DNA of 64,000 nt from Escherichia coli (GTDB taxonomy: Bacteria; Pseudomonadota; Gammaproteobacteria; Enterobacterales; Enterobacteriaceae), in assembly GCF_045037415.1 (NCBI RefSeq), contig NZ_CP173438.1, one strand, 5' to 3'. The position numbers are program-made. Each line of letters begins with the position of its first letter. Position 1 is the stretch's first letter. Shown here piece by piece: positions 9,001-12,000 of the stretch.

Positions 9001-12000
9001 GTTTTGTTCTGGAATCTCCGCTGGTCAACGGGCGCGGTCATATGCGCGTCGGTGACAGTTCATGGCCTGTCAGCGCCAGCGAGGATCTCGGCGCTGGTAC
9101 GCATGTTGAGGTGATTGCGATAGAAGGAATAACGCTGATTATCCGTGCGGTCATCGCCTGACGCGTCTTATCACACCTGGAAATCTGTACCAAAACCCAT
9201 GCCGGATAAGGCGTTTACGCCGCATCCGGCATATAGCCCCCCACATAGTGTTAATTGAATGTTCGGCTAAGGAGTAGCCATGTTTCCCCCTTTCGAAAAC
9301 CTGAAGTACGTCTGCTGAAAAATACCGCTGCGGGCGTCATTTTTTCGGTGAAGTCCGGGAAAGGATTTCTGCGTCAATGTGTGATTTACGATCCGCACTC
9401 GCACGGTCTTATCCATTCGCTCTGCTGGCAGGATGTCCCGTTAATACGTTTCTGGTCCGAGGCTGGATGCCCTACCTGTGCGGAATTTGTCTACAGCGGT
9501 TTTGCGGAGGATGAACAGGGAGCCGCCCGGTTTTTGTCTGCTCTCGAAAACTGGAATTGCCCGTGGTCTGGCCTGGTATCTCCCTGATTCCTATCTCTGC
9601 GTTCTACTCGACGGACACCATAAGGCTACTGCCGCCGCGCTGGAAGGGCGACCGCTCAAAACACTGGTGCTCAGCACGGCAACCCATTTTAATGATGAGC
9701 AACAAACCCTGGTATTTCCTGGCGGGGAATGTCTGCACAAAACAGAGCTGCAATACCACATACCAAAACTCACCGCGTGCAAAACATTACCGCCCAGCGC
9801 ATGGGAGAGTTTCGGCCCTGATAAGCACATCAGCCCATCCGAAACCTGGTCAGGCCCCCTCACCTTCCGGTTGATGGCGCAAAACCGAACGCCGCAAGCA
9901 GATGCTTTTTTTCTGGATTTTGCCATCAATGATGACGGGGAACGTCCGGAGCTAACGAAAATAATGGACGACTATTTTCGCAAGCCTTAATCACCCCGCC
10001 CGATGATGACAGCAGCCGGAGAGATTTTCGATAATCGGGCAGTCGGCGCTGTCATCACCGGGGCAGGCATTCGCCAGCGCCAGCAGCTGGTTACGCATGG
10101 ATTGCAGTTCTTCGATATGCTGTTCGATCTCCGCTACTTTCTCCAGCGTACGACGTTTGACGTCGGCGCTGTGACGCTGCGGATCGTTAAACAGATTCAC
10201 CAGTTCGCCGCTCTCTTCCAGGTTAAAGCCCACCTGGCGTGCCTGGCGCAGTAAGGTCAGTTCGTTGAGATGCTGCTGCGTGTAGGTGCGATAACCGTTT
10301 TCGCTGCGCATCGGCGGCGTCACCAGCCCCTTCTCTTCATAGAAGCGAATGGCTTTGCTGGTCAGGCCGGTAATTTTTGCTACATCGCTAATGTTCATCG
10401 TTCGCGCAACGCCTCCTGTGCTTTGTTAAAGGGTTTCAACAGATATTCAAGCACGTTTTTTTGCCAGTGCGAATATCGACCGCCACCACAATAATACAGG
10501 AGGTACTGCGCACAGAGAGATGTTATACGGTTTTATTGCGCTTCATGACCATTGCCACAATAAGGCTGAGTAAGAGTGCGCCAATAATCCATATCAGCGC
10601 ACGGCTGCCCTGGGACCAGAGACTGTAGATAAAGCCAACGATCACCAACAACATAACCAACGTACCAACGATAAGAATCGGCAACGAGGCGTGAATATCA
10701 TGACGCAGGCGGATCGCCACCACAAACACCGCCAGATAGCAGATCAAAAAGGTGGCACTGGCAACGCTGGCGAGTGAGCCTAAATTCAGCGCCGCCGTCA
10801 TCAGCATAATCAACACCACGACGATGATGTTACCCCAGGTACTCTGCCGCCACAGAGGTTTATTCATTAGCTTCGGCAGTTCGCGTTCGCTACCCATGTT
10901 GTCCATGATGTTAAACACGGCGAACAGGTTTGCGTTGATGGCTGAAGCCGTCGCCAGTAAAGCGCCGATGACGACGATCACATACCCCACATGCCCGAGG
11001 AGCGGAGAAGCAGCCTGCGCTACGGCGGTATCGGCATATTTTTCTAACTCTAATGCCGATACATCGCTAAGCAAAACCAGCGCCAGCGAGATATAAAGCA
11101 ACGTGGTAACGCCAATCGCCACCAGAAACGCCCGTGGCATTATGACCTCCGGATCTTTCACTTTATCCGCCGCGTTCGCCATCATGCCAAAGCCCGCATA
11201 GGCAAGGAAGGTTATCCCGATACAGGAGAAGAACGCCCCGGAGCTGGGGGGCGCAGAAACGGAAATATGCGCCGGTTGCAGCGACCAGACACCGGCAATA
11301 ATCAGCAATAACAGGATCATCATTTTAATGCCGACGAGGATCACTTCCAGCCGCCCTACCGCATGGTTGCTTAAGGAGTTGAAAAGCGTCATCACCGCAA
11401 TGATCCCCAATGCGTAGAGCAAAATAAGGTGCTCCTCCTGACTGCCTTCATGCAAAAACTGCACGGCATAAGCGCCAAAAGCACGGGCGACCATGGCGAT
11501 ACTCACCGCCAGCGTCAACAGGTACAATAACGAGAGCGCCAGCGAAAAAACGCCGTTGCCTAATCCGCGACGAAAGAAGTCGATAATACCGCCATTGCTG
11601 GGATAGCTCGCCCCCAGACGCGCATAGGCATAACCGGAAAACATCGCCACAATACCGCCAAAAGCAAAGGCGACCCAGGTCGAGGCTTCCATTAGCAACG
11701 CAGCCTGCCCCAGCAGCGCGAAGATCCCCGCCCCCACCATTGCCCCAATGCCGATGGAAACGACGTTCCATAGACCGAGGGGTTTGTTACCGTTATTACC
11801 TTCCGTGTTCATCATGATCAGCCCTTAAACACGTTATAGCCGAGTTGCTTAGCGACCGATGCCACCATTTTTTGACCGCGAACACTGTTGCCTTCTTCGT
11901 CCAGTGGTGGTGAAAACGCGGCAATTCCCATCACGCCAGGAACGACCGCCAGAATACCGCCACCTACACCGCTTTTGCCCGGTAAACCAACGCGATACGC

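Follow-up and report, generated by a model that had tools for sequence, protein, structure and literature searches.

Introduction

The ParB-CTPase fold, whose P motif (Box II) is the GxxR signature, is under active study for new nucleoside triphosphate (NTP)-switch functions (PMC12704722). In a separate field, the gene pair cueR-ybbJ of Escherichia coli K-12 has been listed among the convergent excludons with overlapping transcription (PMC12288877). The locus described here touches on both subjects. It lies in a stretch of 64,000 nucleotides from E. coli (RefSeq assembly GCF_045037415.1, contig NZ_CP173438.1), hereafter called the window, and comprises the 829 bp between the stop codons of ybbJ and cueR (9162-9990), which hold a repetitive extragenic palindrome (REP) and a broken open reading frame (ORF). 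According to our analysis, the interval very probably consists of the REP and a non-functional 711-nt remnant of a 1224-nt gene, called X in the following, which has long been established between ybbJ and cueR in the genus Escherichia.

A sequence-only reading of the window had put the two stop codons about 830 bp apart and described the genes as essentially adjacent in K-12, and both statements are correct: in a K-12-type genome the TAA of ybbJ directly abuts the complement of the cueR stop, with a spacer of 0. The same reading had described the interval as native-like in base composition, and its GC content of 0.51-0.555 has indeed been found indistinguishable from that of the flanks. It had also recognized the REP element, which has been confirmed as a multi-copy hairpin at 9199-9232.

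Anatomy of the Remnant

The ancestral start codon of X is the ATG at 9280-9282 on the plus strand, which is preceded by the Shine-Dalgarno sequence AAGGAG (9269-9274) and is the same start as in the intact 407-codon ORFs. The frame opened by this ATG reaches a stop after 12 codons (MFPPFENLKYVC up to the stop). A second frame is open for 110 codons (9255-9587, with a TTG at 9255), and an ORF of 170 codons (9478-9990) follows that ends exactly at the cueR stop. This frame pattern had been seen in the sequence-only reading, which had left unremarked that the 170-codon ORF and the ATG at 9280 stand in one and the same frame. The pattern is not due to chance, because three segments of the remnant align end to end with one intact ORF of 1224 bp, or 407 codons, which is uninterrupted at the same place in other strains. 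The closest intact allele, WP_000492611.1, belongs to ATCC 25922 (Seattle 1946) and Nissle 1917, and the window differs from it by deletions of 1, 287, and 225 nt and by 7 substitutions. The allele of O145 (O145:H28), WP_000898667.1, also aligns end to end with the window apart from the deletions.

The first lesion (9283-9285, plus strand) has been located directly behind the start codon, where the alignments show a run of three T in place of the four found in intact alleles (intact ATGTTTTCCCCC, window ATGTTTCCCCC), so that 1 nt is deleted and the frame shifts by -1. Segment A (9286-9568), which corresponds to codons 3-93 of intact X and contains its N-terminal beta domain with the CPTC motif, is consequently read out of the ATG frame. 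The second lesion (9567-9572) is the junction of a 287-bp deletion at 9568/9569, situated in the microhomology TCTGGC. It has removed nt 280-566 of the intact gene (codons 94-189), the PTDGNGHFFW motif included. In the intact allele the deleted part is flanked by two imperfect direct repeats of 15 nt (CGCCCGTGGTCTGGC and CGCCCGCGCTCTGGC), which are a signature of slippage or illegitimate recombination. Segment B (9569-9853), equivalent to about codons 190-287 and including LLDGHHKATAAAL, stands in the ATG frame again, since the two losses add up to 288 nt (1 + 287), and for the same reason the 170-codon ORF has returned to this frame. The third lesion (9853-9854) marks the junction, at 9853/9854, of an in-frame deletion of 225 bp, by which nt 863-1087 of the intact gene have been lost, that is about codons 288-362 or some 75 residues of the C-terminal helical repeat; microhomology is not evident at its breakpoints. 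Segment C (9854-9990) holds about codons 363-407 and the TAA that abuts the cueR stop. All three segments lie on the plus strand, as do the lesions.

Regarding the cause of the broken frame, the sequence-only reading had proposed a gene of about 235 codons inactivated by two single-base indels, one of them at a C5 run. The inactivation has been borne out, and the length has not, as the ancestral gene has 407 codons (1224 bp). Likewise, the first of the two indels is real, a change of 1 nt in the homopolymer tract after the start, and the second has turned out to be the 287-bp deletion, whose junction does fall within the predicted range of 9545-9590. The C5 run is as long as in the closest intact allele and was wrongly blamed, the lesion being the step from T4 to T3 at 9283-9285, and the in-frame 225-bp deletion had been missed. 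Two alternatives considered at the time were a pair of genuinely separate overlapping genes and a non-coding sequence shared with K-12. The search for an intact orthologue has yielded one continuous ORF of 407 codons instead of two overlapping genes, and an alignment of the ybbJ-cueR interval has shown the sequence to be wholly absent from K-12, so that it is not non-coding DNA there.

Taken as a whole, the remnant is collinear with an intact gene under purifying selection, it carries a frameshift and has lost conserved residues, and its lesions are real. It would encode no working protein, because the predicted catalytic domain has been halved, the helical repeat is short of about 75 residues, and no continuous frame is left. 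Judged from these losses, the remnant is almost certainly non-functional.

Distribution of Alleles and Reality of the Lesions

The distribution of X has been followed in 5426 complete E. coli genomes, which have been searched by megablast with window positions 9100-10050. The gene or its remnant is present in 965 of them, and at least 80% of the 1224 bp are covered in 271. The 35-mer around the start codon that carries the T3 run of the window occurs in 538 genomes of this set, and the corresponding T4 36-mer in 253. From 9100 to 10050, strain SK1144 matches the window at 100% identity, and strains of O25b:H4-ST131 are found among those with the 711-bp form; the window allele is the allele of this heavily sequenced lineage.

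These counts bear directly on the possibility, already raised in the sequence-only reading, that the gene is intact and that the frame breaks are homopolymer errors of sequencing or assembly. The first break does lie in a T/C homopolymer tract, a classic site of such errors. Nevertheless, the identical T3 35-mer recurs in 538 independent complete genomes, and the 287 bp and 225 bp missing from the window (512 bases) end at the same breakpoints in several allele backgrounds, leaving 711 bp of a gene that measures 1224 bp when intact. As no read-level error restores 512 bases, this explanation has been ruled out, and we assign it an exceedingly low probability.

A further view would be that the remnant still yields one or two short functional proteins, namely one of about 110 aa derived from the N-terminal beta domain (from the TTG, 9255-9587) and one of up to 170 aa (9478-9990) that retains the DGHHK motif. 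Both ORFs are open, the strong ribosome-binding site has been kept, the original frame is restored downstream by the sum of 288 deleted nucleotides, and the allele persists in 538 genomes. The ribosome-binding site, however, serves the ATG at 9280, whose frame ends after 12 codons, and the 170-codon ORF has no start linked to such a site, its first 30 or so codons being out-of-frame sequence. In addition, the near-invariant PTDGNGHFFW and the first half of the ParB/sulfiredoxin (Srx)-like domain have been deleted, and two other lineages (L016, L018) have added different 1-nt indels to the same deletions, as occurs in neutral decay; the high allele count is explained by the heavy sampling of lineages such as ST131. 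Based on these features, we regard functional short products as very unlikely, and any residual function of the fragment, which would speak against our interpretation, would have an equally slim chance.

Programmed ribosomal frameshifting, by which the frames would be joined into a single product, has a negligible probability, still lower than that of a sequencing error. A slippery-looking T/C tract is present at the first break, yet the intact orthologues need no frameshifting, the second change of frame coincides with the 287-bp deletion and thus offers no conserved signal, and the T3 run is confined to one of several allele types, with no sign of its being conserved along with a downstream stimulatory structure in divergent species.

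The window holds a case of ordinary gene decay, which RefSeq has already annotated as a pseudogene: in SK1144 the identical locus is labeled by the NCBI annotation pipeline PGAP as 'hypothetical protein; frameshifted' (DAECLI1_RS17740). In comparison with our reconstruction, this record starts at locus position 1713 (window 9312) and lists only the frameshift, whereas the two internal deletions and the true length of 407 codons are absent from it. For the window itself the significance is small, as this is routine decay in a well-sampled E. coli lineage.

The intact alleles present a different picture. Among seven intact Escherichia alleles the ratio of nonsynonymous to synonymous substitution rates (dN/dS) has been determined to be 0.12-0.22, while lower values have been obtained for the neighbors cueR (0.06) and qmcA (0.01). 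Because of these ratios and of the homologues found in 255 genomes, intact X is a genuine gene under constraint, which is looser than that of its neighbors. A search of the literature for the locus or the protein accession has returned no study of gene X.

Proposed Course of the Decay

Several strains carry only part of the lesions, and they can be arranged as a series. SCU-484 (L015) has the 287-bp deletion without the 225-bp deletion and bears a 1-nt insertion of its own, MS1657 (L004) has both large deletions and has retained T4, and the two lineages mentioned above combine both large deletions with different extra 1-nt indels. The breakpoints of the large deletions are identical across these allele backgrounds, which implies that each of the two happened once; the small indels would then have accrued independently, as expected of a gene that was already dead.

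The order of events can be proposed as follows. In a first step, the 287-bp deletion would have arisen by slippage or illegitimate recombination between the two imperfect 15-nt direct repeats, and the in-frame 225-bp deletion would have been the second. In the lineage of the window, which includes ST131 O25b:H4, the T4 run that directly follows the start codon would then have been shortened by one T. In other E. coli the gene seems to have been lost completely, either in the K-12 manner, with abutting ybbJ and cueR stops, or as in O157:H7, where X is cleanly absent beside cueR. The locus thus offers a clean and datable allele series, from the intact gene through the 287-bp deletion and both deletions to the additional 1-nt indels, with full loss in K-12 and O157:H7, and this series could serve as a lineage marker.

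Origin of Gene X at the ybbJ-cueR Position

Outside E. coli, X adjoins the 3' end of cueR, with ybbJ upstream of it, in E. albertii, E. whittamii, Escherichia sp. E1V33, and MOD1-EC7003. In Superficieibacter electus, another Superficieibacter sp., and a related metagenome-assembled genome, ybbJ and cueR are its immediate neighbors on either side. The gene is intact in E. albertii, E. whittamii, and Superficieibacter. Between E. coli and Superficieibacter, protein identity amounts to 90% for QmcA, 80% for YbbJ, and 84% for CueR, compared with 45-49% for X. In some taxa bearing X an island of about 3 kb is placed between ybbJ and X, and in O157:H7 this island has been kept while X is cleanly missing next to cueR. 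The loss in O157:H7, where the flanking context differs, has occurred independently of that in K-12-type genomes. These comparisons are most simply read as showing X to be a long-standing occupant of the site between ybbJ and cueR in Escherichia, where it has been lost or degraded several times.

The opposite polarity has been considered as well. The empty K-12 arrangement would then be ancestral, and X would have been inserted horizontally together with the REP in the lineage of the window and decayed afterwards. Such a history would agree with the patchy distribution of the X family, which is mostly found in Bacillota, with one Clostridial copy located inside a conjugative element, with the different locus of the Salmonella copy, and with two short sequences that resemble each other, GTCTTATCAC at the left edge of the interval and CCTTAATCAC at the right edge. 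The left copy of these edge repeats belongs to a degenerate REP, and a further indel of about 10 nt distinguishes K-12; the repeats could be a target duplication or the scar of a deletion in K-12, with neither being favored. Against an insertion stand the adjacency of X and cueR in four further species of Escherichia and in Superficieibacter, the native-like GC content, the deep allelic divergence within E. coli (synonymous divergence, dS, of 0.15-0.17), the independent clean loss of X in the differing context of O157:H7, and the lack of an integrase, an insertion sequence element, or a tRNA at the site. Horizontal insertion is accordingly held to be unlikely, if clearly better placed than the rivals discussed for the broken frame. 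It concerns the origin only, and the verdict on the pseudogene is unaffected by it. What weighs against long residence is that the choice between ancestral presence and repeated insertion at a hot spot is an argument from parsimony, and that the Salmonella homologue is found elsewhere. Long residence with repeated loss nonetheless remains the reading we prefer.

Some further observations have been made on the X-bearing loci. The Salmonella enterica homologue (L006:6001-7239) has 412 aa, shows 55% identity, and represents a cluster of 2700 sequences; its neighbors are rihA (IU_nuc_hydro) on one side and an Hsp70 (hscC-like) gene on the other, after which DjlB/DUF1266 pairs follow. The X of MOD1-EC7003 (L021:3658-4881) differs from E. 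coli X by a dS of 0.58-0.68 at 78% protein identity, while the flanking genes show a dS of 0.26 (qmcA) and 0.20 (cueR), which points to an allelic lineage of long standing or to an import by recombination that affected X alone. The 3-kb island has been observed in O145 (L003:1-1436), Br_167_kylling (L099:2747-5066), and O157:H7 (L101:745-3197), with genes for a YadA-family autotransporter adhesin, a lipoprotein, and two hypothetical proteins, one of them small and the other of 68 aa. In the same three strains, the other side of cueR is occupied by a type I secretion system and a giant SiiEA/BapA-like adhesin in place of ybaT.

The Intact Protein

Among 100,044 species-representative genomes, 255 contain homologues of X, which measure 390-465 aa and are found mostly in Clostridia, Lachnospiraceae, Ruminococcus, Paenibacillus, and Brevibacillus, and in a few Proteobacteria. 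In an alignment of 48 family members, P54, Y118, F135, D207, G208, H209, H210, and A214 have been found to be invariant, and C64-P-T-C67, P127-T-D-G-N-G-H-F-F-W136, and L-L-D-G-H-H-K/R-A to be near-invariant. An AlphaFold2 model of intact X, calculated on this alignment, has reached a mean confidence (pLDDT) of 86 and a predicted template modeling score (pTM) of 0.86. Its three parts are a beta domain at the N-terminus, an alpha/beta domain in the center, and a helical repeat at the C-terminus (288-405), the last with VHS/HEAT-like matches. The DGHH[K/R] motif is placed at a junction from strand to helix (strand 202-207, then helix 209-218). A Foldseek search of AFDB50 has recovered the X family at full length, and some of its distant members carry the automatic names 'ParB-like nuclease' or 'ParB/Sulfiredoxin domain'.

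Based on the model, a ParB/sulfiredoxin-like fold of the central domain, and with it membership in this superfamily, appears plausible at moderate structural scores. Several results stand against the assignment. No Pfam match has been obtained for X or any of the 48 alignment members, PF02195 (ParBc) included, even at E <= 10. The Foldseek search of the PDB has returned nothing at E <= 0.001 for the model, the best match being SerK with a probability of 0.69. Finally, the fourth position of the GxxR-like motif, which is canonically R, is K in most members and R in a few (for example P0046, P0050, P0085). NCBIfam, PADLOC (0 families), PHROGs (0), and phmmer and hmmsearch runs against PDB sequences have likewise yielded no meaningful match for X. 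A query with a 50-residue motif has returned designed WD40 repeats alone, which have been dismissed as spurious.

The genomic context has been inspected in 77 loci, in which clustering of the neighboring ORFs has revealed no conserved operon partner of X; the recurring neighbors are generic OmpR/histidine-kinase pairs and lineage-specific Angelakisella genes. A role of X as partition ParB has been rejected, as a helix-turn-helix (HTH) is absent and no neighbor is conserved in the 77 loci. Most likely, X would be a stand-alone protein that binds or hydrolyzes NTP, or a small phosphotransferase, dispensable in E. coli.

Going one step further, one may tentatively propose, although the odds are somewhat against it, that X founds an unrecognized, fast-evolving family of stand-alone NTP-binding proteins with the ParB/sulfiredoxin fold, in which a DGHH[K/R] core would stand between an N-terminal beta domain with CxxC and a C-terminal helical repeat. 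Such a family would be missed by Pfam-based surveys of ParB-CTPases, would be common in gut Bacillota, would have undergone repeated loss in E. coli, and may have a part in conflicts between genomes or serve as a kinase of small molecules or proteins. If this is true, the window holds only a dead copy of the new family. Intact X, as present in ATCC 25922, Nissle 1917, and O145:H28, is in any case a tractable representative of an uncharacterized family that is invisible to Pfam and has a predicted ParB/Srx-like core.

The REP Element and the Neighboring Genes

The REP hairpin (9199-9232, for which no strand is given) has been detected by inverted repeat, copy number, and minimum free energy (MFE) fold. 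Its arms of 16 + 16 nt are 88% complementary, and the MFE structure is more stable than those of shuffled sequences (z = -2.7). The 30-mer at 9201-9230 has further copies in the window, with an expectation of 0, at 6100-6129 and 24312-24341, both on the minus strand and with 1 and 3 mismatches, respectively. In the genome set, the REP portion of the query has found matches at many sites in each E. coli genome, with a median of 6. As an imperfect palindrome of about 35 nt that agrees with the REP consensus, is extragenic, and is present in many copies, the element is a REP. The REP-derived family naRNA4 of Rfam (RF02564) has scored 37.9 bits, below its gathering score of 59.5, so the element is not counted as a member, and a second Rfam match, to a snoRNA, has been taken as chance.

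On the left, the interval is bordered by ybbJ of the NfeD family (8703-9161, plus strand), which has been delimited by the ORF list, the PGAP annotation of the identical locus, and the comparison with the MOD1-EC7003 locus, and upstream of which qmcA is located. On the right lies the convergent cueR (9991-10398, minus strand; from ORF list and annotation), the gene of a Cu(I)-responsive MerR-type regulator, with ybaT beyond it. The ybbJ stop of the window (TGA) sits within a degenerate REP-like stretch (9155-9173, GCCTGACGCGTCTTATCAC). At the same position MOD1-EC7003 has a full REP (GCCTGATGCGACGCTAACGCGTCTTATCAGGCCTAC) and several extra REP units (L021:3085-3340). The C-terminus of YbbJ also differs, reading …HIRAVSS in K-12 versus …IIRAVIA, and the stop codon of K-12 is different as well. 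In the gap between cueR and ybaT (10395-10492, minus strand) PGAP has annotated a 98-nt pseudogene ('hypothetical protein; frameshifted; incomplete; missing N-terminus'), which is found in strains identical to the window and in K-12-type genomes.

In a scan for promoters and terminators, neither a promoter-like site ahead of X nor an intrinsic terminator within the interval has been found. Where X or its remnant is present, the 3' ends of ybbJ and cueR are 0.8-1.3 kb apart (829 bp here), which may alter the overlap of the excludon.

Comparison with Known Systems

The palindrome of the window closely resembles the REP elements of E. coli, as its 34 nt form an imperfect palindrome of the GCCGGATAAGGCG...CGCCGCATCCGGC type, and it is extragenic and multi-copy. 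It differs from the bacterial interspersed mosaic elements (BIMEs) in being a single REP unit without a BIME cluster.

Gene X differs from the canonical partition ParB proteins in that it lacks Pfam matches to an HTH or to the C-terminal dimerization domain of ParB, and no parA is found in its neighborhood. The nearer likeness is to proteins of the ParB/Srx fold, in particular to sulfiredoxin, SerK, and SbnI, which are phosphotransferases acting on small molecules or proteins, and to the N-terminal ParB domains found in KorB and PadC. A sequence-level match to these proteins is missing, and half of the corresponding domain has been deleted from the window copy. In the model of intact X, nevertheless, G208-H-H-K/R211 is placed like the GxxR P motif of these proteins, and X is set apart from them by what flanks the predicted core, a CPTC beta domain on the N-terminal side and a helical repeat on the C-terminal side.

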